A stretch of 64,000 nt of DNA, taken from assembly GCA_018818425.1 (NCBI GenBank), contig JAHISB010000018.1, positions 16,390 through 80,389 of the forward strand, given 5' to 3'. Every line of letters begins with the position of its first letter. Positions within the stretch are counted from its first letter, which is position 1. The notes beneath the pieces were generated by a model. The model did not search any database. It worked only from the letters and a program-made list of their open reading frames with translations, and was not told where the DNA came from. This stretch comes from Patescibacteria group bacterium (GTDB lineage: Bacteria > Patescibacteriota > Patescibacteriia > UBA1558 > UBA10009). The position numbers and the translations under genes were made by a program. Positions 1,931-50,692 of the stretch are shown one piece after another.

Positions 1931-4705
1931 ATGCCTAAACAACAAAAATTCATAATAATCGACGGTAATGCGCTTTTGCACCGCGCTTTCCATGCCCTGC
2001 CGCCTATGACTTTAAAGAACGGCACTTTGGTTAATGCTGTTTATGGCTTTACTTCCATTCTGTTAAAGATTATTAAAGAGCTGAAGCCGGACTATATCTG
2101 CGCCGCTTTTGACAGAAAAGGCGTTACTAAACGAGCCGAGGAATTTGCCGATTATAAAGCCCAGCGCAAAAAACAGCCCGACGAACTGTATCAGCAGATT
2201 CCGATTATTGAGGATATTCTGAAAGCTTTTAAAGTGCCGGTGATTGATTCTAAAAAAGAGGGCTACGAAGCTGATGATGTTATTGGCACGGTAGTCGCTA
2301 AACTTAAAAAGGATGAACCCGACATTAAATCGGTGATCGTCACCGGCGATTTGGATACTCTGCAGCTGGTTGATGAAAACGTGGAAGTCTTTACGCTTAA
2401 AAAGGGTATTTCCGATACCATTACCTATGCTCCCCAAACAGTTAAAGAAAGGTACGGCCTGGAGCCGGAGCAACTGGTGGACTTTAAAGCTCTGCGGGGA
2501 GACCCTTCCGACAATATCCCGGGGGTCAAGGGCATTGGCGAAAAAACCGCTGCCAAGTTGATTCAAAAATTCGGCGCTTTGGAAAATTTATATCAAGCCA
2601 TAAAGAATGATGATAAAAAACTGGATGATTTTAAAGAAAGAATTATCAACCTGCTTAAAGAGCGGGAAAAAGAAGCTTTTTTAAGTAAGCGGCTGGTTAC
2701 GATTCAAACCGACTTACCCACTAATTTTAAATTGGCTGATACCAAAATTCAGGGCTTTGACCAAAAAGCGGTTATTAAATTATTTACCGACCTTGAGTTT
2801 AAAAGCTTGATGAATAGAATCCCGATGGCAATGGCCGGCGATGTTGAAAAATTGCCGGATGGTGAAAAAACAAAAGGTTCGCAAAGTAAAATGGAATTTA
2901 TGAAATTGGAGACCAGGCCGAAAAATAAAAAATTCAAATATCAATTAATTGATAATGATGATAAATTCAATAAATTTTTTGATGATTTAAAAAAACAATC
3001 TTTATTTGCTGTTGATACCGAAACTACTTCTTTGGATGTTTGGCAGGCAGAGCTTTTGGGGTTAAGCATTTCCTGGCAAGCAGATGTTGCCTACTATATT
3101 GTAAAGAATGGCGAATGGCTGAAAAAATTAAAACCGATTCTGGAAGATCCTAAAATTAAAAAAGTCGGCCATCATTTAAAGTATGATTACGAAGTCTTGA
3201 TGCAAAATGACATTGTTATTGATGGAATTGAATTTGACACTTTGCTGGCCGCCTATTTATTGACTTCGGGCAACCGCAATTTAAATCTTGATGATCTGGT
3301 TTTCAGCGAGCTTAAGTATCAAATGCAGCCCATTGAAGAGCTGATTGGCCCTAAGGGTAAAAAACAAATGTCAATGAAAGATGTTCCGCTGGAACAGCTT
3401 TCGTGGTATGCCTGCGAAGACGCGGATTTTTCTTTAAAGCTTTATAAAAAACTAAAGCCGCAGCTGGAGCAGGCGGCTAATCTGGGCCTGCTGCAAAAAA
3501 TGGAAGTTCCTTTAATTCCGGCGCTGGCAATTATGGAAAAAACCGGCATTAAAATTGATGTTGATTTTCTCAAAAAGATGAATCAAAAATTTAATCAGAA
3601 AATTAATTCTCTGGAAGATAAAATCTATAAACTGGCCGGCGCTAAATTCAATATTGCTTCGCCTCTTCAGCTTAAAGAAATCCTTTTTGAAAAGTTGAAA
3701 ATTTCCACCGCCGGCTTGAAAAAAATTAAAACCGGCATCTCCACGGCCGCCGCGGAGCTGGAAAAAATGAGAGGCAAGCATCCAATTATCGACCTGATTT
3801 CTGAATTTAGAGAATATGCCAAACTGCAAAACACCTATATTAAAGCTCTGCCTAAATTAGCTGATCCCCGAACCGACCGAGTTCATACCAGCTTCAACCA
3901 GACCATTGCGGCCACCGGGCGTTTTTCTTCTTCTGATCCTAATTTGCAGAATATTCCTATCCGGACGGAAATTGGCAGAGAAATTAGAAAGGCCTTTATT
4001 GCCGAGCGGGGCTATCGGATTATTTCGGCCGACTATTCGCAGATTGAACTGCGGGTAATTGCTTCTTTAGCTGGTGACCAGAAAATGATTGACTATTTTA
4101 AAAAAGGCGAGGATATCCATGCCCGCACCGCCGCCAATATCAACAAGATTGATATTAAAGAAGTCACTCGCCAGCAGCGCCGGGCCGCCAAAGAAGTCAA
4201 TTTCGGGGTAATTTACGGCCTGGGCTATGTTGGCCTGGCCCAACGCACAGGCATTAGCCGCGAAGAGGCCCAAAGTTTTATTGACCAATATTTTGCCGTC
4301 CATCCGCAGATTAAAAACTGGCTGGCAGAAACCAAAAAAATAGCCCACAAGCTCGGCTATGTTGAAGACCTTTTTGGCCGCCGCAGATATCTGCCCGATA
4401 TTAATTCCGGGGTGCAGATGCTTAAAGCGGCGGCCGAACGCATGGCTATTAATATGCCGATTCAGGGCACAGCCGCCGATCTTTTAAAACTTTCGATGAT
4501 TGAAATTGATAATCAACTACCGGCCTTCTCACCTAAATCTAAAATGCTCCTGACTGTTCATGATGAACTGGTTTTTGAAGCGCCGGCCAAAGAAGTTGAC
4601 AGAGTCTCTAAATTAGTTAAAAATATAATGGAAAATATTTATAAATTAAAAGTCCCCATAGAGGTTGATGTCCATTCAGCCAAAAACTGGGGTGACTGTA
4701 AATAA
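1931..4705 (+). CDS. polA: DNA polymerase I (5'-3' exonuclease, 3'-5' exonuclease and polymerase domains)
   Basis: 924 aa. The N-terminus matches the 5'-nuclease domain (IIDGNALLHRAFHAL, GVKGIGEKTA). The C-terminus has the polymerase motifs (RRAAKEVNFGVIYG, LLTVHDELVFE). Confidence 0.95.
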   Translation: MPKQQKFIIIDGNALLHRAFHALPPMTLKNGTLVNAVYGFTSILLKIIKELKPDYICAAFDRKGVTKRAEEFADYKAQRKKQPDELYQQIPIIEDILKAFKVPVIDSKKEGYEADDVIGTVVAKLKKDEPDIKSVIVTGDLDTLQLVDENVEVFTLKKGISDTITYAPQTVKERYGLEPEQLVDFKALRGDPSDNIPGVKGIGEKTAAKLIQKFGALENLYQAIKNDDKKLDDFKERIINLLKEREKEAFLSKRLVTIQTDLPTNFKLADTKIQGFDQKAVIKLFTDLEFKSLMNRIPMAMAGDVEKLPDGEKTKGSQSKMEFMKLETRPKNKKFKYQLIDNDDKFNKFFDDLKKQSLFAVDTETTSLDVWQAELLGLSISWQADVAYYIVKNGEWLKKLKPILEDPKIKKVGHHLKYDYEVLMQNDIVIDGIEFDTLLAAYLLTSGNRNLNLDDLVFSELKYQMQPIEELIGPKGKKQMSMKDVPLEQLSWYACEDADFSLKLYKKLKPQLEQAANLGLLQKMEVPLIPALAIMEKTGIKIDVDFLKKMNQKFNQKINSLEDKIYKLAGAKFNIASPLQLKEILFEKLKISTAGLKKIKTGISTAAAELEKMRGKHPIIDLISEFREYAKLQNTYIKALPKLADPRTDRVHTSFNQTIAATGRFSSSDPNLQNIPIRTEIGREIRKAFIAERGYRIISADYSQIELRVIASLAGDQKMIDYFKKGEDIHARTAANINKIDIKEVTRQQRRAAKEVNFGVIYGLGYVGLAQRTGISREEAQSFIDQYFAVHPQIKNWLAETKKIAHKLGYVEDLFGRRRYLPDINSGVQMLKAAAERMAINMPIQGTAADLLKLSMIEIDNQLPAFSPKSKMLLTVHDELVFEAPAKEVDRVSKLVKNIMENIYKLKVPIEVDVHSAKNWGDCK

Positions 4706-4848
4706 CTTGATTATTAGACTATTTGAGTATTTGAATATTAGAATATTTGATTATCTAAATATTAAATTATTAGAATAATGGTAATAAACTAGATAATCAA
4801 ATATTCCACCGGTCAAATAATCTAATAATCTATGAATCTAATAATCTA

Positions 4849-5346
4849 ATGTTTCTAACGGTCCACGCCGCATCAGGAATTTTTATCGGCAGCCAGGTTT
4901 CTGCCCCTTGGCTGGCTTTTATTTTGGGTTTTGTATCCCACTGGCTTTTGGACTTTATACCGCACGGCGATGAAAAAGTGATTGACCGCTCAAAATTTTC
5001 CGAAAGCCGGCTAAAAAAAATGCTTTTTTATGTGGCTGCCGCAGATACCTTGGGTATTATTATTCTTTTTTACTTTCTTATCTCAACAGAAACCATTGTC
5101 TTGACTTCAGGCATTCTTTGGGGCATGCTGGGAGCAGTGGCTCCGGATTATTTATGGGGTCTCCATAAAATTACCCGCATCAGGGTCTTAAAGCCCCTGC
5201 ATAAAATTCACAACTGGTTTCATCTTAAGCTGACTAATCCCCGATACCCCCGATTAAATCGGGGACGGGGACTGCCTTTCAAGCTTGGCAGTTTAATCCA
5301 GCTGGCCGCTTTTATTGCTTTTTTTCTCTTGATTATTTACTTATAA
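4849..5346 (+). CDS. hypothetical polytopic membrane protein carrying an in-frame palindromic mini-element insertion
   Basis: Hydrophobic helices throughout. The segment 5225..5280 encodes NPRYPRLNRGRG and contains the perfect palindrome ccccgattaaatcgggg. Confidence 0.45.
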   Translation: MFLTVHAASGIFIGSQVSAPWLAFILGFVSHWLLDFIPHGDEKVIDRSKFSESRLKKMLFYVAAADTLGIIILFYFLISTETIVLTSGILWGMLGAVAPDYLWGLHKITRIRVLKPLHKIHNWFHLKLTNPRYPRLNRGRGLPFKLGSLIQLAAFIAFFLLIIYL

Positions 5347-5366
5347 TTGACTTTTGAATCTTTATT

Positions 5367-6314
5367 ATGTTCATCTTTTTATATGGCGAGGACTCGTACC
5401 GCTCCGGCCAAAAGCTTAAGGAAATAAAAAATAATTTTAAGGAAAAAACCGACCCTTCGGGCCTTAATATTGCCGTTTTTGAAGATGAGAATTTTGATTT
5501 GGAAAAATTTAATTCTGCTGCCGGCCAAAGCGGTTTCTTAGTTGCCAAAAGATTAATTATTATTAAAAACCTGTTATTAAATAAGCCGGCTAAAGAACTT
5601 GCTGAAAGCTTAGTTGAATTATTAGACAGGCTAAAAGGCAGTGAAAATATTTTTGTTTTTTACGAAAACGGTATTCCTGACCGGAGAACCGGGCTGTTTA
5701 AAAAACTTGGCCAAAGCAAATTGGTCCAGACTTTCGAACCTCTGGAAAATACCAAACTTGATAATTGGATTAAAAAATATATCGAGGAATCGGGCGGTAA
5801 AATAGAAAAAGACGCTTTGGACTTGCTGCTTTCTTTTGTGGGCGACAATCTGTGGCAATTAACCAGCGAGCTGGATAAATTAATGGCTTTTAAAAATAAT
5901 CAGGCCATAAAAAAGGAAGATGTTGAACAGTTTGTGACGGCAAAATTAAATGAGAATATTTTTGGCTTATCCGATGCCTTGGCCGTTGATAATAAAAAAG
6001 AAGCCGTTAGACTCCTTAAAGAACAGCTGGCCGTGGGCCTAAACGAAATTTATTTATTGACTATGATGACCAGGCAATTTAGAATTTTGGCCGAAATAAA
6101 ATCCCTGCTGTCCCAGGGAGTGCCACAGGCCCACATTGCTTCTAAATTAAAACTCCATCCTTTTGTAGTAAAAAAAGCTCTGCCGCAAGCTAATAAATTT
6201 ACTCTGGCTAAATTTAAAAAAATCTATCAGCAGTTGGTTGAACTTGATAAAAAGATGAAGTCCACCTCCCTGCCGCCGGCTACGCTTCTTAATCAATTTA
6301 TTATGCAAATTTAA
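5367..6314 (+). CDS. holA: DNA polymerase III delta subunit
   Basis: N-terminus is LYGEDSYR, and the central LWQLTSELDKL motif is typical of HolA. About 315 aa. Lies just downstream of polA. Confidence 0.75.
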   Translation: MFIFLYGEDSYRSGQKLKEIKNNFKEKTDPSGLNIAVFEDENFDLEKFNSAAGQSGFLVAKRLIIIKNLLLNKPAKELAESLVELLDRLKGSENIFVFYENGIPDRRTGLFKKLGQSKLVQTFEPLENTKLDNWIKKYIEESGGKIEKDALDLLLSFVGDNLWQLTSELDKLMAFKNNQAIKKEDVEQFVTAKLNENIFGLSDALAVDNKKEAVRLLKEQLAVGLNEIYLLTMMTRQFRILAEIKSLLSQGVPQAHIASKLKLHPFVVKKALPQANKFTLAKFKKIYQQLVELDKKMKSTSLPPATLLNQFIMQI

Positions 6315-6330
6315 AAAGGCCTTGCCTTAC

Positions 6331-6462
6331 TCTGTCATTGCGAGCGGAGCGAAGCAATCCCCTTGGTCGAATGAACGTTCGTTCAACTAGGGAATCGCCG
6401 CGTCGTCGAGCTTTGCTCGTCTCCTCGCGATGACAATGAAAGGCAAGGCCTTTTTTGATTCT
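6331..6462. terminator. long imperfect nested hairpin with T-runs on both sides, likely a bidirectional terminator between convergent holA and rpsT
   Basis: The outer arms aaaaaggccttgcctt...aaggcaaggcctttttt enclose the inner complementary arms gtcattgcgag...ctcgcgatgac. Flanked by A-runs and T-runs. Confidence 0.5.
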
Positions 6463-6865: not shown

Positions 6866-7111
6866 ATGAAAGTCGAATACATTTCATCCAAAGAACAAAT
6901 GCTGATTGCCGAAAATTTGTATAATATTACCGATTCTATAGAAGCGGCTAAACGATTAGAAGAAGAATGCGGTATCAAAATTACATACGGCAAATCAGTT
7001 GAGCTTAGGGACTTTGCCCGCAAGCTGGATAAAACCAAGTTCTTTAATTGGGAAATTGAAAAAGCTATCGAAAAACATAGCGGGCATAAAATTCGTTTAC
7101 GCGATTTATAG
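6866..7111 (+). CDS. small hypothetical protein (81 aa, charged and helical)
   Basis: ORF only. It converges on and overlaps the 3' end of the truB fusion gene by about 47 nt. Weak RBS. Confidence 0.25.
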   Translation: MKVEYISSKEQMLIAENLYNITDSIEAAKRLEEECGIKITYGKSVELRDFARKLDKTKFFNWEIEKAIEKHSGHKIRLRDL

Positions 7112-8405
7112 CTTCCAGCGGCTTAATCAAATATTTAGAATAATTATCTTTTGTAAGCTGATCCAACCGAACCGCCTCATTAATATTAAAATCCCCGATC
7201 GCGGTTCTTTTTAGTTCTTCAAGAATTGCCCCGGTACCCAACTTTTGACCAATGTCATGCGCCAGCGTTCTGATATATGTTCCGGTTGAACAAACGATTC
7301 TAATTTCAAAATTTGGGATTTGGGATTTGGGATTTGGGATTTGTTTGTTTCTTGCTCCGCCTTGAGCTTGTCGAAAGGTGGGTTGTATCTTGTATCTTAA
7401 TAATTCAATCTTATATATTTCAATCTCCGATGGTTTCCGAGCAATGGTTTTACCCTGACGAGCAATCTCATATAATTTTTTTCCATCGACCTTCTTGGCC
7501 GAAAACATCGGCGGCAACTGCTGCTGTTTACCAATGAACGATTTTAAAATGTTTTGGATTTTGGATTTTGATATTTGAGAATTATTTAGTCCCCGATTTA
7601 TTCGGGGATGGAATTTAGGATTTACCTCTCGGCCATGAGCTCGAGGCCGAATGGGAATTTTACCCGTCCTATCATAAGTATCCGACGTAACTCCCAAAGT
7701 AATGGCCGCTTCGTAAATTTTTGACAGCACATTAAACACTCCTGCAATTTTAGTTGCCTGTCCTATAGCGCAAATCAAAAGCCCGGTGGCAAACGGATCG
7801 AGCGTGCCGGTATGGCCGATTTGTTTGATGCCGGTGATGGAACGAAGCTTGGCCACAACATCGTGCGAAGTCCAATCCATGGGCTTATTAATTAATAAAA
7901 ATCCTGCTCGCCTCGATTCGGCGAAGCGGGCCTGCTCATCCTCTAATGCTTTCCTAATGCTTTTACCCTTGCAGACATCTTCTTTAAACGGTTTAAGTCT
8001 CTCTATTTTAAAATGTAAATCGGAGTTAACCGCTAAATCATGCAAGCCCTTAACATAGTTCTGCTGATCATAGCCCATGCCAATAACATCGGGTTTTTCT
8101 TGTTTAATGATTTTATAAGGATCGTCCAGATCGCCTAAAACAACCTTCCAATCCCCCGGTCTTTTGGTCTTTGATAAAACATCCTTTAATTGATTCAATC
8201 TTTTATTTTCATCAAAGTAAGGATTCCTGCCTTTCATTTTTTTTACATTTTCGTCTCTGGCAATTATAACAACTAAAAAATTATCTGACCCTAAACCGGA
8301 GCGTAGCGACTGGTTTAGGGCACCCAGCTCTTTAGCTTGTTCAATTAAATTGATATGTCCGGGATGGATTATATCAAAAGTTCCCGCAACTAGTACTTTA
8401 GTCAT
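7065..8405 (-). CDS. truB: fusion protein: N-terminal cytidylyl/adenylyltransferase-like domain (HxGH) + C-terminal tRNA pseudouridine(55) synthase TruB
   Basis: The N-terminus GTFDIIHPGHINLIEQAKELG is a nucleotidyltransferase HxGH motif. The TruB catalytic motifs lie further on (GHTGTLDPFATGLL, KIYEAAITLG, QLPPMFSAKKVDGKKLYE). Two in-frame repeat inserts at 7312..7380 and 7552..7660. Confidence 0.8.
   Translation of the reverse strand: MTKVLVAGTFDIIHPGHINLIEQAKELGALNQSLRSGLGSDNFLVVIIARDENVKKMKGRNPYFDENKRLNQLKDVLSKTKRPGDWKVVLGDLDDPYKIIKQEKPDVIGMGYDQQNYVKGLHDLAVNSDLHFKIERLKPFKEDVCKGKSIRKALEDEQARFAESRRAGFLLINKPMDWTSHDVVAKLRSITGIKQIGHTGTLDPFATGLLICAIGQATKIAGVFNVLSKIYEAAITLGVTSDTYDRTGKIPIRPRAHGREVNPKFHPRINRGLNNSQISKSKIQNILKSFIGKQQQLPPMFSAKKVDGKKLYEIARQGKTIARKPSEIEIYKIELLRYKIQPTFRQAQGGARNKQIPNPKSQIPNFEIRIVCSTGTYIRTLAHDIGQKLGTGAILEELKRTAIGDFNINEAVRLDQLTKDNYSKYLIKPLEAINRVNEFYARYVFR
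7312..7380. repeat. (TTTGGGA)4 heptamer array + mini-element half, in frame inside truB
   Basis: atttgggatttgggatttgggatttgggatttgtttgtttcttgctcc... Confidence 0.8.
7552..7660. repeat. (TTTTGGA)3 + palindromic mini-element (tccccgatttattcgggga), in frame inside truB
   Basis: Homologous to the uvrB insert and to the intergenic copy at 34558..34614. Confidence 0.8.
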
Positions 8406-8433
8406 AATAAATATTATTTGAAATTTGACCTTG

Positions 8434-8462
8434 ACATTATTGAAATTTCTGCTATCATAGTT
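8434..8462 (+). promoter_or_regulatory. sigma70-like promoter TTGACA-N16-TATCAT upstream of the lipoprotein gene
   Basis: Direct sequence read: ccTTGACAttattgaaatttctgcTATCATag. A GGAGGA RBS sits before the GTG start at 8504. Confidence 0.45.
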
Positions 8463-8503
8463 GATTAGGCAATTATATCAAAAAATGGAGGAGGAACAAA
8501 ACC

Positions 8504-9085
8504 GTGAAAACAATCGTTCTTTTCACTTTAGCGCTCTGCCTGCTGCTAAGCGGTTGCAACCGCATCGAGCCGCCGGTTGTTCGGGCGGAAAAACAGTTCT
8601 GCCAGCTGGAAAATCAGTTCTGGCTTAAGGCAATCGATAGCGCCACCCAACTAGCCTATAACTGGGTGACAATCGATACCTTGAAAAGTGGGTTTTTTAT
8701 CCCTTCCAACTGCATCAAACAAATGAGCGCAATTTTCACTGACACCTTGCAGGGAGACTCAGTGCAAATCAATGCCTACCGGCTAGCCCAACTAACTTCA
8801 GATGAATACTGCATTATAATTTTGGAATTAGTCCGTCGGTCAACAGATTGGCATCGGACGGTGCGCTGGCCAATGGATACAACCTGGGTAGAATTTACCC
8901 CTAATCTGCCAGATACGATTAGCTTGGGAGTACATAAAATTGCTCATCAGCAATACTGGTACGCCATTACCATCGGCGCGACCAGCGGTCCGGCTTTTGT
9001 CCGCTCCGGTTTCGTCAAAATGCTGTTGGAGAAGATGCGTCTAGATCTTTATCCGCCAACTGCGGCGTCAAAAAATCCAAAATAA
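8504..9085 (+). CDS. lipoprotein (GTG start; lipobox LLLSGC)
   Basis: Signal peptide MKTIVLFTLALCLLLSGC followed by a hydrophilic body. A GGAGGA RBS lies 9 nt upstream. Confidence 0.55.
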   Translation: MKTIVLFTLALCLLLSGCNRIEPPVVRAEKQFCQLENQFWLKAIDSATQLAYNWVTIDTLKSGFFIPSNCIKQMSAIFTDTLQGDSVQINAYRLAQLTSDEYCIIILELVRRSTDWHRTVRWPMDTTWVEFTPNLPDTISLGVHKIAHQQYWYAITIGATSGPAFVRSGFVKMLLEKMRLDLYPPTAASKNPK

Positions 9086-9117
9086 TATGCGAGATAAACT
9101 GAAAAACAGACTGGACA

Positions 9118-11286
9118 CTAAAGTTCAGTCTTTTTATTTCTTAATTTTTTAAAATCAGCAATTTGGTCTCTTAATTCCGCTGCTTTTTCAAACTCTAAAT
9201 TACTCGCGGCCATAGCCATCTGATTCTCCAAGTCCTCAATAAGATGTTTAAGCTCGTCTTTGGGAATATCTTTGAGTTTATCGGTCCTTGGTCTTTGGTC
9301 TTTGGTTCTCTCCCGCACATTCTCAACCTTAACATCTTTCTTAATTGATTGAGGTTCAACGTTGTGCCTGCGATTATATTTCTCCTGAATTTTCCGGCGG
9401 CGGTTGACTTCTTTAATGGCCCTTTTCATCGAACCGGTTTGTTTATCAGCGTACATTATAATTCTACCTTCAATATGCCTGGCAGCTCTGCCCATAGTTT
9501 GGACTAATGATGTTTCGCTACGAAGAAATCCTTCTTTATCAGCGTCTAAAATAGCAATCAGCGAGACCTCGGGCAAATCAAGGCCTTCGCGAAGTAAGTT
9601 GATGCCCACCAAAACATCGTATTTTCCAAGCCGAAGATCCCTGATAATTTCAATCCTTTCTAAAGTGTGAATTTCGGAATGCAAATACTGAACTTTAAGG
9701 CCTTTTTCCTGCAGATATTCTGTAAGATCTTCGGCTAAACGTTTAGTTAAAGTGGTAACTAAAACTCTTTGCTTTTTTTTGACTGTAGCTGTGATCTCTT
9801 TAATTAAATCTGCCACTTGATTCTTGGTTTTTTTGACTTCCACGCTTGGTTCCAAAAGTCCGGTCGGACGAATGAGTTGTTGGGCGACTGCGGAATTTGA
9901 GTCTTCAATCTTCAGTTTTAAATCTTCGTAATCCACCACCTCTTTTGTAAGCGCCCCGGCCTTCATTTTTTTAGTTTTAATTCCCGACATGCGATACTCG
10001 TAAGCAGCCGGCGTGGCCGAAACAAAGACTGCTTTGCTTATATGATTTTCAAACTCCTTGAATTTTAACGGCCGGTTATCTAAAGCTGATGGCAAACGAA
10101 AGCCAAAATCGACCAGGGTCTGTTTTCTGGCCCGGTCGCCATTATACATAGCGTTAAGTTGAGGCACCGTCATATGCGATTCATCAATGAACAGCAGAAA
10201 ATCATCAGGATAATAATCAATCAATGTCGCCGGCTGTTCCCCCGGTTCCCGGTTGGTCAGGTACCTTGAATAGTTTTCTATGCCGTTGCAGTAGCCGGTT
10301 TGTTCTATCATTTCTAAATCGTACTTGGTTCTTTCTTCGATTCGTTGGGCTTCTAGTAGTTTATTTTGATTCTTAAGTTGAGTGGCTCTTTCCTTCATTT
10401 CTTTTTTGATGGATTCCAGCGATTGTTTTAATCTTTCCTCGGGCGTGACAAAATGCTTGGCCGGAAAAACTTCAATGTTTTGGATTTTGGATTTTGCTCG
10501 CCCTGAGCGAAGCCGAAGGGGAATTTGAGATTTGTTTGTTTCTTGTCCTCGATTAAATCGGGGATTGGAACTTGGTACTTGTTGACCTGTGATTAGGTCA
10601 ATGATAGATAACTTTTCAATAAGATCGCCATTAAATTCAACCCTTATTACCTCATTCTTCTCTTCAATTGGAAAAATATCCAAAACATCGCCTTTGACTC
10701 TAAAATTGCCGCGGTAAAAATCATAGTCATTTCTTTTGTACTGAAGATCGGTTAAGTGACGGAACAACTTATCGCGCTTAATTTTTTGTCCGACAGCCAA
10801 CTTGATTCTCATATCCTTATAATCTGCCGGACTGCCTAAACCATAAATGCACGAAACTGATGCCACAATCAATACATCCTGACGGGTTAATAAAGCGTTG
10901 GTTGAAGCGTGGCGCAGTCTGTCGATTTCCTCGTTAACATCAGTTTCCTTTTCTATATAAGTGCCGGACTGGGGAATGTAAGCTTCGGGCTGATAGTAAT
11001 CGTAATAGCTGACAAAATAATGCACCGCATTTTCCGGAAAAAATTCCTTGAATTCTGATGCTAATTGAGCGGCCAATGTTTTGTTATGAGAGATAACCAG
11101 GGTTGGTTTTTGGATTTTCTCAATAACACACGCTACAGTGTAAGTCTTGCCACTGCCAGTGACTCCCAACAAAGTTTGATGTTTATAGCCCCTTTTTATT
11201 CCGCTGGCTAATTTATCAATAGCTTGCGGCTGGTCGCCAGTCGGCTTGAACTTGGATTTTAACTTAAATTTTGGCATAATTAACAA
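9118..11286 (-). CDS. uvrB: excinuclease ABC subunit B, with an in-frame mini-element insertion of about 110 nt
   Basis: Walker A GVTGSGKT, helicase motifs, the UvrB/UvrC interaction domain at the C-terminus (ELRDQIADFKK). The insert at 10477..10585 encodes NPRFNRGQETNKSQIPLRLRSGRAKSKIQN. Confidence 0.95.
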   Translation of the reverse strand: MLIMPKFKLKSKFKPTGDQPQAIDKLASGIKRGYKHQTLLGVTGSGKTYTVACVIEKIQKPTLVISHNKTLAAQLASEFKEFFPENAVHYFVSYYDYYQPEAYIPQSGTYIEKETDVNEEIDRLRHASTNALLTRQDVLIVASVSCIYGLGSPADYKDMRIKLAVGQKIKRDKLFRHLTDLQYKRNDYDFYRGNFRVKGDVLDIFPIEEKNEVIRVEFNGDLIEKLSIIDLITGQQVPSSNPRFNRGQETNKSQIPLRLRSGRAKSKIQNIEVFPAKHFVTPEERLKQSLESIKKEMKERATQLKNQNKLLEAQRIEERTKYDLEMIEQTGYCNGIENYSRYLTNREPGEQPATLIDYYPDDFLLFIDESHMTVPQLNAMYNGDRARKQTLVDFGFRLPSALDNRPLKFKEFENHISKAVFVSATPAAYEYRMSGIKTKKMKAGALTKEVVDYEDLKLKIEDSNSAVAQQLIRPTGLLEPSVEVKKTKNQVADLIKEITATVKKKQRVLVTTLTKRLAEDLTEYLQEKGLKVQYLHSEIHTLERIEIIRDLRLGKYDVLVGINLLREGLDLPEVSLIAILDADKEGFLRSETSLVQTMGRAARHIEGRIIMYADKQTGSMKRAIKEVNRRRKIQEKYNRRHNVEPQSIKKDVKVENVRERTKDQRPRTDKLKDIPKDELKHLIEDLENQMAMAASNLEFEKAAELRDQIADFKKLRNKKTEL
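10477..10585. repeat. (TTTTGGA)3 + palindromic mini-element (cctcgattaaatcgggg), in frame inside uvrB
   Basis: tttgtttgtttcttgtcctcgattaaatcggggattggaacttggtacttg aligns with 34558..34614. Confidence 0.8.
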
Positions 11287-11404
11287 TCTTTATAAAAAAA
11301 TTTGTTGATTAAATAGACCTCGAGCGAATATAACGAGCCGAGAGGTTGGACGGAAATTAGATCGAAGTTTGAATTTCATAGTCAATATATAATATCATTA
11401 CTCT

Positions 11405-11470
11405 TAATTTTTTAAAAGCGAACGTCAAGTAGGTACGCGCCGTGGCGCGTACCTACAAAAGTGCCGTTCG
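11405..11470. promoter_or_regulatory. nested perfect palindrome between divergent uvrB and ruvA (operator or bidirectional structure)
   Basis: The outer arms agcgaacg...cgttcgct enclose the inner 13-bp arms gtaggtacgcgcc-g-tggcgcgtacctac. Confidence 0.4.
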
Positions 11471-11514
11471 CTAAAAAGAATTGATTTTTACCCCAAAAAC
11501 TGCTACATTATACG

Positions 11515-11590
11515 AGCATGGGAGCATGGGAGCAAGTGTTCTAATGTTCTAATGTTCTAATGTTCCAGTGTTCCAATGCTCTAATGAAAA
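11515..11590. repeat. (ATGTTCTAATGTTC)-type tandem array upstream of ruvA
   Basis: gagcatgggagcatgggagcaagtgttctaatgttctaatgttctaatgttccagtgttccaatgctctaatg. Confidence 0.7.
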
Positions 11591-12272: not shown

Positions 12273-13298
12273 ATGGAAATAACTCTTTTAAATAAGCCAC
12301 GATTTGATGAATTTGCCGGCAATCAAAAATACAGTCAATTTTTACAGTCTTGGGACTGGGGCGATTTCCAAAAAAACGTCGGCCATAGAGTCTGGCGACT
12401 GGGCGTTGCTTTAGATAATCAGATTATTGCCTCGGCCCAAATTATTGAGCATCTTTTGCCTTTTAATAAAAGTTATCTTTACTGCCCTCGCGGTCCGGTA
12501 ATAGCAGAAAATTTATCTGACAAACAAAAACTCACGGCCTTAAAACTGATTCTAAGCAAAGCCCGCGACATTGCCATTTCAACTCCCCAAACCGAAGAAA
12601 TCTTCTTCCGCCTAGAGCCAACCCATCGTCTACAACCTACAACCTACCCACTACAACCTACACCCTACAACCTAAGAAAAACAAAGCCCATCCAGCCCGC
12701 CGATACTCTGATTTTAGACCTAACTTTGCCGAAAGAACAATTGCTGACAAACATGCGCCAAAAAACCAGATACAACATCCGCCTGGCCGAAAAACATGGA
12801 GTAACAATTAAAGAAGAGAGTGGCTTTTCCAAAGTCTGGCCATTTTTCGAACAAACTTCTAAAAGAGATAAATTCGGCCTTCATCCCAAAAAATACTATC
12901 AAAAAATGGTTGAGGATTCCGATTTAATAAGGATGTGGGCCGCAGATTATAAAGGAAAAATAGTTGCCGCTAATATTGTCAGTTATTTCGGCAATACCGC
13001 CACTTATGTTCACGGCGCTTCTGACTATCAGCAACGTTCAATGATGGCGCCGTTTCTTTTACAATGGGAAGTGATTAAAAACGCCCAGGAGCAGGGCTAT
13101 AAATATTATGACTTTCATGGAATTGCGCCAAACCATAACAAAAATCACCCTTGGCACGGCATCACTAGATTTAAAAAAGGCTTTGGCGGCCAAGTAATTC
13201 ATTATCCCGGAACTTTTGATTTTATTTATCAGCCATTGAGTTATAATATATATAAGGCCTTGCGAAAATTAAACCTTCTTATCAGAAAAATTTATTAA
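12273..13298 (+). CDS. FemAB-family aminoacyltransferase (peptidoglycan interpeptide bridge formation), with an in-frame (ACAACCTAC)n repeat insert
   Basis: SWDWGDFQ...LYCPRGPV and the C-terminal GFGG region resemble the FemABX family. The repeat at 12630..12675 encodes LQPTTYPLQPTPYNL. Confidence 0.65.
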   Translation: MEITLLNKPRFDEFAGNQKYSQFLQSWDWGDFQKNVGHRVWRLGVALDNQIIASAQIIEHLLPFNKSYLYCPRGPVIAENLSDKQKLTALKLILSKARDIAISTPQTEEIFFRLEPTHRLQPTTYPLQPTPYNLRKTKPIQPADTLILDLTLPKEQLLTNMRQKTRYNIRLAEKHGVTIKEESGFSKVWPFFEQTSKRDKFGLHPKKYYQKMVEDSDLIRMWAADYKGKIVAANIVSYFGNTATYVHGASDYQQRSMMAPFLLQWEVIKNAQEQGYKYYDFHGIAPNHNKNHPWHGITRFKKGFGGQVIHYPGTFDFIYQPLSYNIYKALRKLNLLIRKIY

Positions 13299-14763: not shown

Positions 14764-16080
14764 ATGAAAACTTTTGTAAAGAAACTTCTACCTCCTTTTA
14801 TTCTGGGCTGGTACCACCAAGTACTGGCATTTTTAGCTATGGTCATTTATGGTTTTCCTTCTAATAAATTGATTGTTATTGGCGTAACCGGCACCAACGG
14901 CAAATCAACGGTCGTCAATTTAATCGGCGAAATTTTAAAAATTTCGGGCCATCAAGTTGCCTGGACCGCCACCACCAACTTTTTTCTTGACGGCCAGGAG
15001 CGGCTTAACGACCAAAAAATGACCATGCCGGGCAGATTCAAAACTCAAAAATTCTTAGCAGATAGCGTAAGGGCCGGCTGTAAATATGCCATAATCGAAA
15101 CTTCATCGGAGGGCATTAAACAATACCGGCATTGGGGCATTAATTATGATCTGGCGGTTTTTACTAACCTGACTCCCGAACATATCGAAGCCCACGGCAG
15201 TTTTGAAAACTATAAAAAAGCCAAAGGCAGACTCTTTAAGCATCTGACAAAATTCCCAAAGAAAAAAATCAACAATCAGCTGATTGATAAAACGATTATA
15301 GTAAATACTGACGATCAATATGCCGATTACTTTTTAAATTTTCCGGCTGACAAAAAATTGGCTTTCTCAATTAAAAAAAAATCCGACTTTAGGGCAACCA
15401 GCATTAAGCTTGATTCTAACGGCACTTCTTTCACCCTACAACCTACCCCCTACAACCTACCCCCTACAACCTACAAAACTAATTTACTGGGGAAAGTTAA
15501 CATCTACAACTGCCTCTCGGCTATTGCCGTTGCCAAAGCTCTTGGAATCGACAGCGATAAAATCCAGCAAGCCTTACTAAAATATAAAGGCATGCCCGGA
15601 CGTTTTGAATTTATTGATAAGGGACAAAAATTCAAAGTGATGATTGACTATGCGCCCGAGCCCGAGTCAATGAAAAAATTGTATGAAACTTTGCAATTAT
15701 TTAAGTTTAATAAAATAATTCATGTTTTAGGTTCCTGCGGCGGCGGCCGAGATAAGTCCAGAAGACCTATTTTAGGAAAATTAGCCGCAGAAAACGCTGA
15801 CATTGTGATAGTCACTAACGAAGATCCTTACGACGAAGACCCGCAACAAATTATTGATCAAGTAGCGGCCGGCGCCGAAGCTAATGGTAAAATTCTTAAT
15901 CAAAACTTATTTAAAATATTGGATAGACGCGAAGCAATTAAAAAAGCTTTGTCATTGGCTAATGATAATGATTTAGTTTTGCTGACCGGCAAGGGTTGCG
16001 AGCAGCATATTTGCGTTACTCGCGGGAAGAAAATTAAGTGGGATGATCGAGAGGTTGTTAGAGGGTTGTTGAAAATATAA
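14764..16080 (+). CDS. Mur ligase family protein (MurE-like), with an N-terminal TM segment and an in-frame (ACAACCTAC)n repeat
   Basis: P-loop VIGVTGTNGKST, the Mur ligase middle and C-terminal motifs (TGKGCEQH...WDDRE). The repeat at 15433..15477 encodes LQPTPYNLPPTTY. Confidence 0.7.
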   Translation: MKTFVKKLLPPFILGWYHQVLAFLAMVIYGFPSNKLIVIGVTGTNGKSTVVNLIGEILKISGHQVAWTATTNFFLDGQERLNDQKMTMPGRFKTQKFLADSVRAGCKYAIIETSSEGIKQYRHWGINYDLAVFTNLTPEHIEAHGSFENYKKAKGRLFKHLTKFPKKKINNQLIDKTIIVNTDDQYADYFLNFPADKKLAFSIKKKSDFRATSIKLDSNGTSFTLQPTPYNLPPTTYKTNLLGKVNIYNCLSAIAVAKALGIDSDKIQQALLKYKGMPGRFEFIDKGQKFKVMIDYAPEPESMKKLYETLQLFKFNKIIHVLGSCGGGRDKSRRPILGKLAAENADIVIVTNEDPYDEDPQQIIDQVAAGAEANGKILNQNLFKILDRREAIKKALSLANDNDLVLLTGKGCEQHICVTRGKKIKWDDREVVRGLLKI

Positions 16081-19843: not shown

Positions 19844-19904
19844 AAATAATTAAATAGCTTAACTACTCACTACATACTACATACTACATACTACTCACTA
19901 AAAT

Positions 19905-23826: not shown

Positions 23827-23860
23827 TTTCTAGACTATTTGATTATAAGCGCCGTTGTCC

Positions 23861-23995
23861 GCGGATAACGCTGAGACGCGCTGACCATTAGCTGATATCC
23901 GCCGAGGCGCGCTGATACAAAATTTATCAGCGAATATCCGCCCGCTTCGACTCCGAAGCGAGGCGAGCGCGCCTCGGCGTGTCTTGGCGGTTATC
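23861..23995. repeat. 135-bp GC-rich structured repeat, copy A (direct repeat of 25462..25597)
   Basis: gcggataacgctgagacgcgctgaccattagctgatatccgccgaggcgcgctgatac...ggcggttatc. It differs from copy B at only a few positions. Confidence 0.85.
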
Positions 23996-24060: not shown

Positions 24061-25401
24061 TTATTCCCACATTAAAGCCGCTTGTTCATATAGAGGCAAA
24101 ACTTTCTCCAGTAATATAATTAACGGTTCTTTGCTTAAAGTTAAAGGAGGGTTAGGCCCAAGCGCTTCCCTATCCTCATCAAAAATTTTAGCAATTTCCA
24201 GATATTTTTGAGCTAATTGATAGTTGCCTTTTTCTTGAAAATAATAATACAGCGCCACCGCGCTTGGCGTATCATAATCATAAGTATAACCCCGGGAAAT
24301 GTTAAAATTGTTATCAGAATTTTTTAAATACTCAATAGTCTTTTTGATATTGGCCGGAGCTTCAACCGCATTCTTTTTATTTATAACATAAAGCTCTGCT
24401 TCTATTTTTGGCTGGCCGGTTTTTTCAAACCAGAACATTTGGTGATTATCGCTCCAAGAGCCGATAAATTCTTCGTAGGCTAAAAACCAGGTGTCTTCTA
24501 TTAAATTCGCTCCCAAGAAATCTTTAGGAAATCTTTCGTGGGAAACTTCAGGCGAACCAAGCCAGACCCCTTTATTGTTATAACCTGCCAAGGCAATAAA
24601 ACTGTCGTTCACATGAACAATGGGAATAAGACCGGCATTTAACAATTTTTTGGCAAAAAGAAACTCCTCATCAACATCTTTAAAGTAAATTAAATTTTCA
24701 AACTTAATACCGGGCACCACATTTTCCGGCGGATGGATCGGGCTGGTTGAACCGCGGTAAACTTCGTAGCCCAAATTCTTAAAAGCATAAAAATTATTCA
24801 TGCCCGGGCCGTAGCGTTCGGAACTGTTTCTGCCCGCGGTAAAAAGAATGGGCTGACCATAAAGAACATATTCATAAAGGTCAATCTCCGGCTCCAGATA
24901 ATGGATAATCCCCGAGCCGGTTTGCAGCCAGCAAAAGCCGCCGGTCGTAATTAAATAACTGGGTACCGGATATTTGACTTCGTCCAAAACCTGTTCCGGT
25001 AGTAGAGTTTTAAAGCTGGCAGCCAAATGCGCCTGATCCTTTTGATATTCCAGCTCATACTTAAAAACCCCTTTAGCCGCCAAAAGAGCTAAAGCCAGAA
25101 AAACAATCAAACCCGGAATAACAATATTCTTAAATTTAAGGCCTTTTTCTGCCTGAACTTTTCTGGCTTTGAAAAAAACATCTGCTAACGCATAAAGATA
25201 AATAAAAACCAGAGCGCCTAAAACCAAATAAGAGCGGGGATTATTAAAAACCAAAAAAGTACTGCTTTTGTAAAAAACAACAAACCATAAAAAGGAGATG
25301 GTTATAATAAAAACAGCCGCATTAGAATAACTGCCGATATACAAATGGCCAAGGCCGGGATAGAAAATGGTTAGCAACAGGGCTAGTTTTTTATTCTTCA
25401 T
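24061..25401 (-). CDS. hypothetical membrane-anchored protein (TM2-like N-terminus, large C-terminal domain)
   Basis: 446-aa ORF. N-terminus GLGHLYIG plus 3-4 TM helices. The C-terminal soluble domain is unassigned. Confidence 0.5.
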   Translation of the reverse strand: MKNKKLALLLTIFYPGLGHLYIGSYSNAAVFIITISFLWFVVFYKSSTFLVFNNPRSYLVLGALVFIYLYALADVFFKARKVQAEKGLKFKNIVIPGLIVFLALALLAAKGVFKYELEYQKDQAHLAASFKTLLPEQVLDEVKYPVPSYLITTGGFCWLQTGSGIIHYLEPEIDLYEYVLYGQPILFTAGRNSSERYGPGMNNFYAFKNLGYEVYRGSTSPIHPPENVVPGIKFENLIYFKDVDEEFLFAKKLLNAGLIPIVHVNDSFIALAGYNNKGVWLGSPEVSHERFPKDFLGANLIEDTWFLAYEEFIGSWSDNHQMFWFEKTGQPKIEAELYVINKKNAVEAPANIKKTIEYLKNSDNNFNISRGYTYDYDTPSAVALYYYFQEKGNYQLAQKYLEIAKIFDEDREALGPNPPLTLSKEPLIILLEKVLPLYEQAALMWE

Positions 25402-25461
25402 ACTATAATTTTAGCATCTTTAGGTAAAACATTAAACTCTTTGTCTGAAACGCCGATGCAT

Positions 25462-25597
25462 GCGGATAACGCTGAGACGCGCTGACCATTAGCTGATATC
25501 CGCCGAGACGCGCTGATACAAAATTTATCAGCGAATATCCGCCCGCTTCGACGAGTAAAGCGAGGCGAGCGCGCCTCGGCGTGTCTTGGCGGTTATC
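25462..25597. repeat. 135-bp GC-rich structured repeat, copy B
   Basis: Near-identical to 23861..23995. It lies just upstream of the start of the gene at 24061..25401 on the minus strand. Confidence 0.85.
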
Positions 25598-34480: not shown

Positions 34481-34557
34481 AAAACTCCAAATTAAAAGAA
34501 CTAAGGAACCAAACAATAACCAAAATCAAAAATAAAAATTTCTTATTTGAATTTTTT

Positions 34558-34614
34558 AATTTGTTTGATTCTTTTCCCTCGATTAAATCGAGGGTCGGTT
34601 CTTGGTAATTTTTA
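34558..34614. repeat. intergenic copy of the palindromic mini-element (ccctcgattaaatcgaggg)
   Basis: aatttgtttgattcttttccctcgattaaatcgagggtcggttcttggtaattttt. Confidence 0.75.
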
Positions 34615-36650: not shown

Positions 36651-36814
36651 TGATTAATGACTGATGACCAATGATTTCGGCCAAAGGCCGACCAGCCTTT
36701 GGCTGGGATGACTGATGATTATATATTAAATTGACTAGCCGGGGGTTTAGTCGAGCTGAGCTCGATAGCCCTCGGCTTTTTGAATTACTTAACTATAAAT
36801 GCTAAAATAGGGAT

Positions 36815-36902
36815 ACTATAACATTAGAACATTAGAGCATAGGAGTAATTATTTATGTTCTAATGTTCTCATGCTCCCATGTTCTAATGTTCTCATGTTC
36901 TT
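36815..36902. repeat. the same ATGTTCTAATGTTC-type array in inverted pairing upstream of the flippase gene
   Basis: aacattagaacattagagcatagg...tatgttctaatgttctcatgctcccatgttctaatgttctcatgttc. Confidence 0.7.
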
Positions 36903-38315: not shown

Positions 38316-38366
38316 TTATCTTTAGATTAATCAAGGCATAAAATCCAATATAAGGCGGAGGAAATC

Positions 38367-38783
38367 ATGAACCCTTTAAAAAAAATACTGCCGGAAAACG
38401 GACTCTTGCCGTGGTTTCCGGTATATCTCCCGGTGATAAATATTATCGCCTGCGGGATGTATCTCGCTGAGTTGATTGGGGCAGAAATTTGCGCCACGAC
38501 CACGTTATTCCAGGGGGCGCTAATTTTCCTCATCCTCTATTTAATCCCCGCTCGTTTGAAGTGGAAGCCGAAATGCAACGATCGTTGCATTATAATTTTC
38601 CACGTTTTGATAACGCTGGCACCGGCCGCCGTCATTGGCGCTGGATTCCTGGGATTAATTTGGAGGCCAACGCTCCCATTAGTATTAGGGGGGATATTCC
38701 TCAGCCTGGCGTACTTGTTCGTATTTTACCTGCTCCCAAAATGGGAGAGAGAAAATTATCACAAACAGTTAGCACTAAATTAG
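38367..38783 (+). CDS. hypothetical membrane protein in a GC-rich segment
   Basis: GGAGG RBS 6 nt upstream. Four hydrophobic helices. Competing overlapping ORFs exist in this unusually GC-rich stretch. Confidence 0.35.
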   Translation: MNPLKKILPENGLLPWFPVYLPVINIIACGMYLAELIGAEICATTTLFQGALIFLILYLIPARLKWKPKCNDRCIIIFHVLITLAPAAVIGAGFLGLIWRPTLPLVLGGIFLSLAYLFVFYLLPKWERENYHKQLALN

Positions 38784-38977
38784 CACTTGATGCTATACTG
38801 TAATAGACCGCTCCTGGATTTGAGCGGTTTTTTATCTCGCCTCTCGCCCTTCGGCTGGCTCAGGGCGCCTTGAATGAAATTGAAAGGCGACTTCGCCTCT
38901 CGACTTCGCTCGAGGCGGATTTATCTTGCCCAACAGGATGAATTGATAAAATTAGTGGGTCAAGGTAAAATACAACT

Positions 38978-40402
38978 ATGCTTTACTTATTAATCATTAT
39001 TTTTTACCTGTTATTTACCTGGGTATCGCATCGAGATATCCGCTGGGGCATTTATTTAACTCTGTTATTTTTGCCTTCTTATCTGATTCGTTTTCAGATT
39101 TTAGGAATGCCGGCGACCCTTTTAGAAGGCATGATCTGGCTGCTTTTTATTGTCTGGCTTTTAAAACTTCGCCAAGAAAAAGGCCTGACCCTAAATCCAG
39201 TAAAATGGGTAAAGAACATCCTTAATCCTCAATCCTTAATCCTCAAAGAACAAAATCCAATTCCTAGATTTTTCAGATTACCGATGATTTTATTCCTCGC
39301 CGCCGCCACTATTTCGGCCTTTGTCTCCCCCCAGCTTCAGGCCGCTTTAGGCATCTGGAAAGCTTACTTTGTTGAAGCGCTGATGTTCTTTATTATTTTT
39401 ATCTATAACATCAGAACATCAGCACAGGTAAAACAGGTTATCAGGATTTTAGGAGTTTTGACGATTGTTATAGGGCTATTTGCCATTTACCAAAAACTGA
39501 CCGGGGATTTAATTCCCCACCCCTACTGGGCAGCCGAAGCCACCAGAAGAGTAACCACTTTCTTTGGCTATCCCAATGCCAATGCGTTATTGATAGCGCC
39601 GGTTTTGATGTTGACTATTGGCAATTTGTTGACTGATAAAAAATTTAAACTGATTGTCATTAATTTACTGGTTCTAATTCTTGGAATCTTAACGATTCTC
39701 TGGGCCGGCTCAACCGGCGCTCTGCTCGGCATTGCCGCCGGCCTAATCTGCTTCCTGCTCTTCTGCAAAAAAACCAGAATTATAACCATAGCGGTTTTAG
39801 CCATAGTTCTGATTGTCAGCTTCACTCAACTGCCGGCCGCAGACTACCTAAAACAAACAGCCGGCTCGCTAGTTTACACCGATCTGCCCCTGGTGCCTTC
39901 CGACGTCCAGATCCGCTACCAGCAATGGAAAGAAACTTTAACCATGCTCAAAGACACGCCGATTTTTGGCGCAGGTCTTAACGGTTATCAAACTTTAATG
40001 ATTCCCTATCATCAATTTTGGCATATTGAAATTTTTCTTTATCCTCATAATTTCTTTTTAAATTTTTGGTCAGAAACTGGACTATTGGGATTAATCTCAA
40101 TTATATGGATTTTAGTATCCTTTTTTATTATAAGTTTTAAGTTTTCAGTTTTTAATCTTAAATCAATAAAAAACTTAAAACTGAAGACTGAAAACTATAA
40201 TCAGAGTTTCACTTACCAAATATTGACTATTACAACGTCTTGCGCTATGATTACTCTCCTTGTTCACGGCCTGGTTGATGTTCCTTATTTTAAAAACGAT
40301 CTGGCGATATTGTTTTGGATAATAATCGGAATAATAATAATTTTATACAACGAACGGAGGCGTGCGAGAGTGGTTGAATCGGACGGTCCCGAAAACCGTT
40401 AG
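38978..40402 (+). CDS. O-antigen ligase / Wzy_C-family membrane protein; its 3' end reads 48 nt into tRNA-Ser
   Basis: Polytopic. The periplasmic loop with FGAGLNGYQ...H...FW resembles O-antigen ligase family proteins. An in-frame (ATCCTTAATCCTCA)2 repeat sits at 39219..39248. Confidence 0.6.
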   Translation: MLYLLIIIFYLLFTWVSHRDIRWGIYLTLLFLPSYLIRFQILGMPATLLEGMIWLLFIVWLLKLRQEKGLTLNPVKWVKNILNPQSLILKEQNPIPRFFRLPMILFLAAATISAFVSPQLQAALGIWKAYFVEALMFFIIFIYNIRTSAQVKQVIRILGVLTIVIGLFAIYQKLTGDLIPHPYWAAEATRRVTTFFGYPNANALLIAPVLMLTIGNLLTDKKFKLIVINLLVLILGILTILWAGSTGALLGIAAGLICFLLFCKKTRIITIAVLAIVLIVSFTQLPAADYLKQTAGSLVYTDLPLVPSDVQIRYQQWKETLTMLKDTPIFGAGLNGYQTLMIPYHQFWHIEIFLYPHNFFLNFWSETGLLGLISIIWILVSFFIISFKFSVFNLKSIKNLKLKTENYNQSFTYQILTITTSCAMITLLVHGLVDVPYFKNDLAILFWIIIGIIIILYNERRRARVVESDGPENR

Positions 40403-40444
40403 GCCAGCAATGGTCTCGAAGGTTCGAATCCTTCCGCCTCCGCC
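40355..40444 (+). tRNA. tRNA-Ser (anticodon CGA) with long variable arm and encoded CCA
   Basis: Acceptor arms GGAGGCG/CGCCTCC. Anticodon stem acggt/accgt with the loop ccCGAaa. Long variable arm. T-arm gaaggTTCGAATccttc. Discriminator G followed by CCA. Confidence 0.85.
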
Positions 40445-40568
40445 AGTACATTTTTTTATCAATAGACCCGATTGCCTATATTTTTCTTATATTTTTAAAG
40501 TTTTATGAAATACAAAAAAGTTCGACCCAAGCGGGATTCGAACTTTTTTATTATTCAATGCCGTAATT

Positions 40569-49484: not shown

Positions 49485-49694
49485 TAATCAGCCCTAATTT
49501 TGATTGTGGATAAAAGTTGGCAAAAACTATTATTTTATTGTATAATAATATCAGTCTGACATCTAAACTATCCGCTTTATTCCACTATTTTTAGAGATTA
49601 AAATATTAAAATATTAAACTTAATTAAAATTCAATTGATTGAATAATGTCTTTAAATAAGAACATTATTTCAAATCACGAAAGGAATTAAAGAT

Positions 49695-50060: not shown

Positions 50061-50223
50061 CTAAAATTGATATAACTTGAGTAATAGCTCATCCTTGCTA
50101 CTTTTAAAAGGGTGGGCTAATGCTTGGATTATATTTAAGTGACAAGTGATCAACTCGGTCTAAGCCGGGTAAATGACAAATGTAAGTAATCTTGGTCATT
50201 TGTCGCTTGTCATTTTTATTTTT

Positions 50224-50688: not shown

Positions 50689-50692
50689 AACT

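Follow-up and report, generated by a model that had tools for sequence, protein, structure and literature searches.

Short tandem repeats with a unit of 7 nt lie in frame inside protein-coding genes of a Patescibacteria group bacterium, in a stretch of 64,000 nucleotides (assembly GCA_018818425.1, contig JAHISB010000018.1, positions 16,390 to 80,389; hereafter the 64-kb window). We studied three such arrays, one each in a FemAB-like gene (12630-12674), a murE gene (15434-15476) and a gene of the Wzy_C or O-antigen ligase family (39218-39246). Their units stand head to tail, occur more often than expected by chance and, in murE only, change in number by whole units, as heptanucleotide simple sequence repeats (SSRs) do. 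Our preferred explanation, held with moderate confidence, is that they are microsatellites generated by slippage and filtered by reading frame and by what the encoded protein tolerates.

Short tandemly repeated repetitive (STRR) heptamers were reportedly described by Mazel and colleagues in 1990 in the cyanobacteria Calothrix and Nostoc. STRR are tandem heptamers of a few sequence families that recur at many loci and in related genomes, and the recurrence of some heptamer families in our data is suggestive of this only; STRR sequences are, however, mainly non-coding and specific to heterocystous cyanobacteria, whereas the present arrays are mostly genic and belong to Patescibacteria. A cyanobacterial origin, prompted by this likeness, was rejected because the close homologues are all Patescibacteria; the nearest are Kerfeldbacteria- and Komeilibacteria-like genomes, with 82% identity for the best MurE homologue and 68% for the best GTDB species representative. 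Rickettsia palindromic elements (RPE) are said, after Ogata and colleagues in 2000, to be selfish DNA that sits in frame within genes. The arrays resemble RPE in being short in-frame repeats tolerated in surface-exposed parts of housekeeping proteins. RPE are, however, palindromic mobile elements of 100-150 bp, whereas the arrays are non-palindromic microsatellites with no fold and no conserved flanks. A better analogue of RPE in the window is a separate hairpin family, CCCCGAWTWAATCGRGG (at 5248, 7591, 10547, 34577 and 42858).

The neuO gene of E. coli K1 holds a coding heptanucleotide variable number tandem repeat, 5'-AAGACTC-3', from which full-length protein results only if the number of units is a multiple of three (PMC13001214). 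The arrays share with neuO a 7-nt tandem repeat within an open reading frame (ORF) and the rule of divisibility by three; in neuO the number is changed by slippage (PMC13001214). There, the gene is a dispensable one for surface modification, carried by a phage; it has 3-53 perfect units at its 5' end, and its switching has been measured. Here, 3-6 often imperfect units lie in internal loops of chromosomal housekeeping genes, with a single variant allele seen. Heptameric long SSRs are over-represented in bacteria, with GGGAATC in Xanthomonas and GGGGAYT in Nostoc, according to Mrazek et al. (2007) as recounted in PMC4692102, which also places tandem heptamers in Calothrix and Nostoc. As far as that account describes them, these SSRs and the present arrays have in common a specific enrichment of length 7, differences in length and sequence at the same locus between close relatives, and a lack of mobile-element features. 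The SSRs described there are, however, strongly intergenic and G-rich, with quadruplex-forming potential (PMC4692102), whereas here 28 of the 43 heptamer runs counted lie within long ORFs, the arrays of the window genes are G-poor on the coding strand, and the host belongs to Patescibacteria. Our literature search found nothing that links such SSRs to Patescibacteria (Candidate Phyla Radiation, CPR) or to internal loops of housekeeping genes.

The three genes and their arrays are the following.

12273..13298, + strand: gene for a FemAB-family aminoacyl-transferase, 341 aa (Pfam FemAB, E = 6.4e-48; PDB matches to FemX and FmhB)
12630..12674, + strand: FemAB heptamer array, CTACAAC CTACAAC CTACCCA CTACAAC CTACACC CTACAAC CTA, encoding LQPTTYPLQPTPYNL, residues 120-134
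14764..16080, + strand: gene for a MurE-type Mur ligase, 438 aa (PDB MurE 4bub, E = 3.9e-59; Pfam Mur_ligase_M and Mur_ligase_C)
15434..15476, + strand: murE array, perfect, (CCCTACAACCTACC)x3, equal to six heptamers (CTACAAC CTACCCC)x3, encoding (T)LQPTPYNLPPTTY(K)
38978..40402, + strand: gene for a Wzy_C (O-antigen ligase family) membrane protein, 474 aa (Pfam Wzy_C, E = 2e-20)
39218..39246, + strand: ligase array (ATCCTTA ATCCTCA)x2, encoding ILNPQSLIL, residues 81-89

Tandem Repeats Finder (TRF) reports a period of 7 or 14 at all three arrays and a period of 9 at none. The murE array (period 14, 2.9 copies, 100% matches, score 82) is the top-scoring and longest perfect array in the window. 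The FemAB array is read as period 7 with 6.4 copies or period 14 with 3.2 (78-83% matches), and the ligase array consists of two exact tandem copies of ATCCTTAATCCTCA (period 14, 2.1 copies, 100% matches), as the initial annotation had it. Tracts hold 3-6 heptamers, and of the three only those in murE and the ligase gene are perfect, and this at the 14-nt level. The same annotation placed the arrays correctly to within 1-2 nt, and it recognised the peptide (L)QPTPYNL as common to FemAB and MurE: the two arrays are in the same reading frame, encode LQPTPYNL and agree at 23 of 24 nt. It was mistaken in taking the unit for a nonamer, and its 'ctacaacctac' is one heptamer followed by the first four bases of the next. 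Because the unit is 7 nt and not 9, single-unit changes are frameshifts rather than in-frame changes of length.

A census of exact tandem runs in the window shows enrichment at three periods only, 7 (7 observed against 0.25 expected), 8 (4 against 0.05) and 14 (5 against 0), with zero runs at period 9. With up to one mismatch allowed, CTACAACCTAC has eight matches, all within the FemAB and MurE arrays, where 0.39 are expected; none of 100 shuffles reaches eight. The coding strand of the three arrays contains no G, every antisense frame of the FemAB and MurE arrays is closed by stops, and the residues encoded by arrays are Pro, Thr, Gln, Asn, Ser, Leu and Tyr. Single-strand folding of the three arrays gave 0 kcal/mol, not better than shuffles, which indicates that there is no hairpin and agrees with their earlier description as hairpin-free direct repeats, in frame inside ORFs. 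A search of the window against Rfam returned no match, and an RNA or hairpin function of the arrays was rejected on these two results.

Copy number differs at murE. The ENA contig ERZ27247128:k141_561449 (104.4 kb; here L001), of which 7,026 bp were aligned to the window, is identical over this length except for one 14-mer (window 15434-15447) that is missing from murE; the array thus has three copies of the 14-mer in the window and two in L001. The murE gene of L001 is frameshifted and was called as two ORFs, the first of which stops right after the array (...LQPTPYNLQN and stop). Rescue of this allele by programmed +1 frameshifting was considered and rejected, as the site AAC TAA T appears to lack a recognisable slippery context. 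No entry of the protein collection corresponds to the intact 438-aa MurE, whereas the proteins of its neighbours are recorded at 100% identity, including in NCBI: FemAB (P0241) in NCBI, JGI, ENA and Logan, and the O-antigen ligase as P0121. This suggests that recorded assemblies carry the frameshifted form of murE, as the commoner allele. The arrays had been annotated as unstable and potentially length-variable, which holds for murE; the FemAB array, however, is unchanged in L001, the sole other copy compared, and the ligase array is identical in Logan contig L089, the only other contig compared there. Variation in the only long perfect array, and not in the shorter or imperfect ones, is as slippage predicts.

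The difference at murE could instead be spurious, with the arrays static and one assembly in error. Just two assemblies were compared at this gene, de Bruijn assemblers can mis-resolve tandem repeats, and breaks in the Logan contigs of this genome do fall at repeat arrays. The array of 41 nt is, however, well below the final k of 141 given in the MEGAHIT contig name, which makes an assembler artefact unlikely. The change is also exactly one 14-nt unit, and orthologues independently show length differences quantised by the unit at the murE site. On balance, we regard an artefact of assembly as unlikely.

Among 34 aligned MurE sequences, the site of the array has no insert in 27 of the 33 orthologues (...GTxFxLQ-SSxYKTNLLG...). 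The insert-bearing sequences, those of the window and five orthologues, are longer by 7 aa in five cases and by 9 aa in one. In the AlphaFold model of MurE (mean predicted local distance difference test score, pLDDT, 89.6), strands 220-225 and 235-239 form a beta-hairpin, and the array encodes its turn or tip; from the published E. coli MurE structure, we take this hairpin to belong to a small antiparallel sheet that lies along the edge of the central domain. A different MurE loop is occupied in L006, from a distant member of Patescibacteria, where (AATTTTC)x3 and (AAGTTCC)x4.7 stand together (693-750). In FemAB, the linker between FFRxEP and TKxIQP is 24 aa long in the window, which is 7 aa more than the modal length of 17 aa that 17 of 38 orthologues have. 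The pLDDT of the AlphaFold model falls below 50 only at residues 122-129, within the part encoded by the array. The ligase array encodes a loop between hydrophobic helices that has its usual length in the orthologue alignment, so that no insertion is seen; in the orthologue P0123 (L093), this loop is longer by 7 aa and (AATCATY)-periodic. The recurrence of a 7-aa quantum, in five of six insert-bearing MurE sequences, in the FemAB of the window and in the ligase of P0123, would fit slippage under frame selection. The permissive nature of the positions, a beta-hairpin tip in MurE, a disordered loop in FemAB and an inter-helix loop in the ligase, likewise supports it.

The encoded peptide itself, rich in Pro, Thr and Gln and similar to LQPTPYNL, might be what is required, with the DNA periodicity a by-product. 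FemAB and MurE do have the same 8-aa peptide, and an orthologue of the ligase that is 56% identical (P0128, L092) has ATCCTCA ATCCTCA ATCCTTA ATCCTTA at the same place, encoding the same ILNPQSLIL with two synonymous differences and no others. A 7-nt period, however, puts successive units in different frames, which selection on a peptide would not create; most orthologues have no insert, and those that bear one encode unrelated peptides of equal length; and the FemAB segment is predicted to be disordered. Codon identity with L092 over the ligase array is 7 of 9, compared with 49% gene-wide among identical residues (P = 0.08, not significant), and ordinary peptide conservation therefore suffices. 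We consider a requirement for the peptide very improbable as the cause of the arrays. The ligase array is old and stable. The initial annotation held that invariant copy number together with the same repeats in distant orthologues would speak against instability; at the ligase gene the orthologue half is found, and copy number was compared in one other contig only.

Insert-bearing MurE orthologues carry different heptamers at the same site.

MurE site, window: (CTACAAC CTACCCC)x3
MurE site, L083: (CTCAACC)x3
MurE site, L085: (TCAATCC)x3-4
MurE site, L086: (GTCATCG GTCATCA)x2, that is GTCATCR
MurE site, L082 and L002: no insert

The conserved flanks of this site are CTA CAA (Leu-Gln) and AC(T) TAC AAA AC (Thr-Tyr-Lys), and CTACAAC of the window matches them. 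The heptamers of L085, L086 and L083 each resemble the flanks of their own gene (CAG TCA TCA ATT in L085 and L086). We infer from this likeness that the arrays were seeded in situ and then extended by slippage. The FemAB site is similarly occupied by (ATCCTCA/ATCCTTA) in L082, by the octamer (AATCTTTC)x3 in L086 and by (TCATCGA TCATCGG) in L083, all of them ending in a conserved ..CAACCT(A/T)A.., and in other orthologues it also takes hairpin-type peptide insertions.

Heptamer arrays are present in other genes of the window as well: three in an ORF that fuses a cytidylyltransferase with TruB, two in uvrB, one in rpoC and two more in the ligase gene. Those located individually, with one from the rpoB-rpoC spacer, are listed here.

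7311..7343, - strand: (CCCAAAT)x4.7, perfect, in the TruB-fusion ORF (TRF and exact-run census)
7552..7570, - strand: (CAAAATC)x2.7, in the TruB-fusion ORF, directly downstream of a hairpin element (exact-run census)
9283..9306, - strand: (AGACCAA)x3.4, near the 3' end of uvrB (TRF and exact-run census)
10478..10496, - strand: (CAAAATC)x2.7, in uvrB, at the end of an insertion of about 28 aa (residues 236-269) that holds two hairpins
19862..19900, + strand: (ACTACTC/ACTACAT), in the rpoB-rpoC spacer, its end 4 nt away from the start codon (ATG) of rpoC; related to CTACAAC
about 40170-40201, + strand: (AAAACTG/AAGACTG), second array of the ligase gene, in a variable C-terminal loop; resembles a degenerate uvrB array at 9895-9926 (- strand)

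The FemAB, MurE, TruB-fusion and uvrB arrays are stop-free in all three coding-strand frames; those of the ligase gene (39218 and 40170) and of rpoC are open in the frame used and have stops in one or both of the others. Both uvrB arrays and an octamer array at 11537 are unchanged in L001, and Logan contigs that cover 4438-6361, 7625-11546 and 36868-40445 are identical to the window. The TruB-fusion ORF (7065..8405, - strand) has an unusual architecture, with a cytidylyltransferase-like N-terminal domain joined to TruB (pseudouridine synthase), and contains hairpin elements too. Compared with solved UvrB structures, uvrB (9118-11286, - strand) has a second insertion, of about 29 aa (residues 433-463), which holds the degenerate heptamer array at 9895-9926. 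A tRNA-Ser(CGA) gene at 40356-40445 overlaps the last 47 nt of the listed ligase ORF, and the real stop and C-terminus of the ligase may therefore differ.

Some heptamers recur at unrelated loci. The same 14-mer, bar one base, is found in FemAB and MurE, 2.8 kb apart, and CTACAAC-type arrays occupy three loci of the window, including the one before rpoC; in the likewise distant L081 (11429-11448) the rpoB-rpoC spacer has the related (ATTCTAC)x3, that is (CTACATT)n. The pair (ATCCTYA)2 occurs at five independent loci in 1.35 Mb from five genomes, namely in three genes across four genomes and at one intergenic site. The array (CAAAATC)n stands after the hairpin CCCCGAWTWAATCGRGG and a common stretch, CAAGAAACAAACAAATCYCAAAT, in uvrB as well as in the TruB-fusion gene. 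These recurrences, and the hairpin-type insertions at the FemAB site of other orthologues, would be accounted for if the arrays were a dispersed family, copied between loci either by ectopic gene conversion or by a mobile element like STRR, small dispersed repeats (SDR) or RPE. Hairpins, conserved flanks and target duplications are, however, lacking at the FemAB, MurE and ligase arrays, whose edges merge into conserved gene sequence. Heptamer sequences are moreover very diverse across 86 loci of other Patescibacteria, and the FemAB and MurE arrays differ within one genome, in L086 (octamer and GTCATCR) as in L083 (TCATCGR and CTCAACC). Copying between loci seems to us quite unlikely as the general source.

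Three of the genes that bear arrays act on the envelope, and the arrays might be contingency loci that reversibly switch murE, the femX-like gene and the O-antigen ligase gene through heptamer number, as adaptive phase variation. The geometry is that of neuO, a repeat within an ORF whose unit is not a multiple of 3 (PMC13001214). A second assembly of this strain has an OFF-type allele of murE, and the lack of a record of intact MurE suggests that, among the assemblies on record, this frameshifted form is commoner than the intact one. Similar arrays nevertheless lie in uvrB, the TruB-fusion gene, rpoC and intergenic spacers and are not concentrated in dispensable surface genes, and the tie to peptidoglycan and envelope genes that the initial annotation drew does not hold, the rpoB-rpoC spacer being among the other sites. 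The murE gene is normally essential and not dispensable. In addition, the tracts are short and mostly imperfect where long perfect tracts would be expected, and no reversibility was observed. No variation was seen in the FemAB array or in that of the ligase gene, which is conserved as a peptide and is interrupted by stops in both alternative frames. Phase variation as the function of these arrays is thus unlikely.

The same spectrum of periods is found outside the window. In 86 loci from other Patescibacteria, totalling 1.29 Mb, exact runs of period 7 number 40 against 1.7 expected and those of period 8 number 19 against 0.3; period 6 (8 against 1.7) and period 9 (6 against 0) follow, and periods 3-5 are at chance. 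The heptamers in these loci are mostly unrelated in sequence. With the same period spectrum in 86 loci, the arrays of the window are one local instance of a phylum-wide tendency and are not peculiar to peptidoglycan genes.

According to the slippage explanation that we prefer, arrays of 7-nt units, which are often paired as two variants of 14 nt together, would start from short local seeds, would be formed and renewed by slipped-strand mispairing, and would persist in genes where the encoded peptide sits in a permissive surface loop. Since 7 is not a multiple of 3, only multiples of three units stay in frame. Gain or loss of three units (21 nt, 7 aa) would keep the frame, and orthologues would come to differ by quanta of 7 aa, while changes of one or two units, the commonest products of slippage, would give null or split alleles such as the 14-nt variant of murE. 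The composition of the coding strand would be what survives frame selection, as arrays that interrupt the frame in use could not persist. On this account, the arrays would be non-adaptive.

Four points weigh against this explanation. The murE difference is the sole polymorphism seen, and it lies between assemblies rather than between reads, where assembler error is possible. The same or nearly the same heptamer families occur at unrelated loci (FemAB and MurE, ATCCTYA, CAAAATC), which is not a prediction of pure in-situ slippage; selection for a few stop-free, loop-friendly heptamers, gene conversion or carriage on the hairpin element could each be responsible. The ligase array has been kept in proteins that differ at 44% of positions, which means that some arrays are stable or are selected as peptides. 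Finally, the preference for 7 and 8 nt over other unit lengths is left unexplained by these data.

If these findings are general, many of the length 'insertions' typical of CPR proteins would be products of microsatellites, added in steps of 7 aa, and the essential genes of tiny genomes would hold built-in frameshift hotspots. Where CPR metagenome-assembled genomes show split or frameshifted genes, as the 104-kb contig does for murE, the cause may then be variation in the population or a mis-counted repeat instead of gene loss, with consequences for metabolic reconstructions. The arrays would also provide a large natural data set on the old question of why bacteria favour 7-nt units. A stronger proposal, which we think improbable, is that a lineage-wide process generating 7- and 8-nt repeats rewrites housekeeping loops, leaving different heptamers at the same sites in each lineage. 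Changes of one or two units would then reversibly switch off, in a fraction of the cells, or split even core cell-wall genes such as murE, and heritable heterogeneity of envelope synthesis in these episymbionts would result.

Other repeats in the window are of different kinds. The dispersed hairpin element CCCCGAWTWAATCGRGG occurs at 5248-5273, 7591-7616, 10547-10572, 34577-34602 and 42843-42874, and its flanks are partly conserved (10524-10583 and 34554-34613 agree at 70% over 60 nt). The element is in frame inside uvrB, in the insertion at residues 236-269, and inside the TruB-fusion ORF, and it is accompanied by a second, GC-rich type of hairpin (CCCCTTCGGCTTCGCTCAGGGCGAGC and similar). The CCCCGAWTWAATCGRGG family is a candidate for RPE-like in-frame selfish DNA, and is probably the class of repeat that the initial annotation counted as its first. 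Octamer arrays (GAGCATGG, TGTTCTAA, ATGTTCTC and AATAATCT/TTGAATAT) lie at 11514-11586, 36820-36905 and 4699-4850; they are intergenic and directly upstream of the starts of ruvA, a flippase gene and ORF 4849. Those at 11537 and about 36856 both belong to the ATGTTCTA family, and inverted pairs are formed at 4699-4848 and 36807-36904. Two Logan contigs end inside octamer arrays (L094 with its end at 11546, L089 with its start at 36868). Between uvrB and ruvA, the window has octamer arrays only, whereas the related genome of L086 has at this place (2432-3820) an RVT_1 reverse transcriptase and a bAvd accessory gene, which are components of a diversity-generating retroelement.

Larger duplications are also present. 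A direct repeat of 105 nt (94% identical; 23847-23951 and 25448-25552), with a related 28-mer at 28330, flanks ORF 24061..25401 (- strand); a mobile element or a duplication may have its boundary here. Six to eight small paralogous genes of membrane- or pilin-like appearance stand in tandem at 49300-54770 and have in common a block of 66-143 nt that encodes ...GG(F/I)QWMTAGG.... At 59574-62839 (- strand), in a region of low GC content (28-32%), two adjacent ORFs of about 540 aa have 71-77% DNA identity and represent a tandem duplication.

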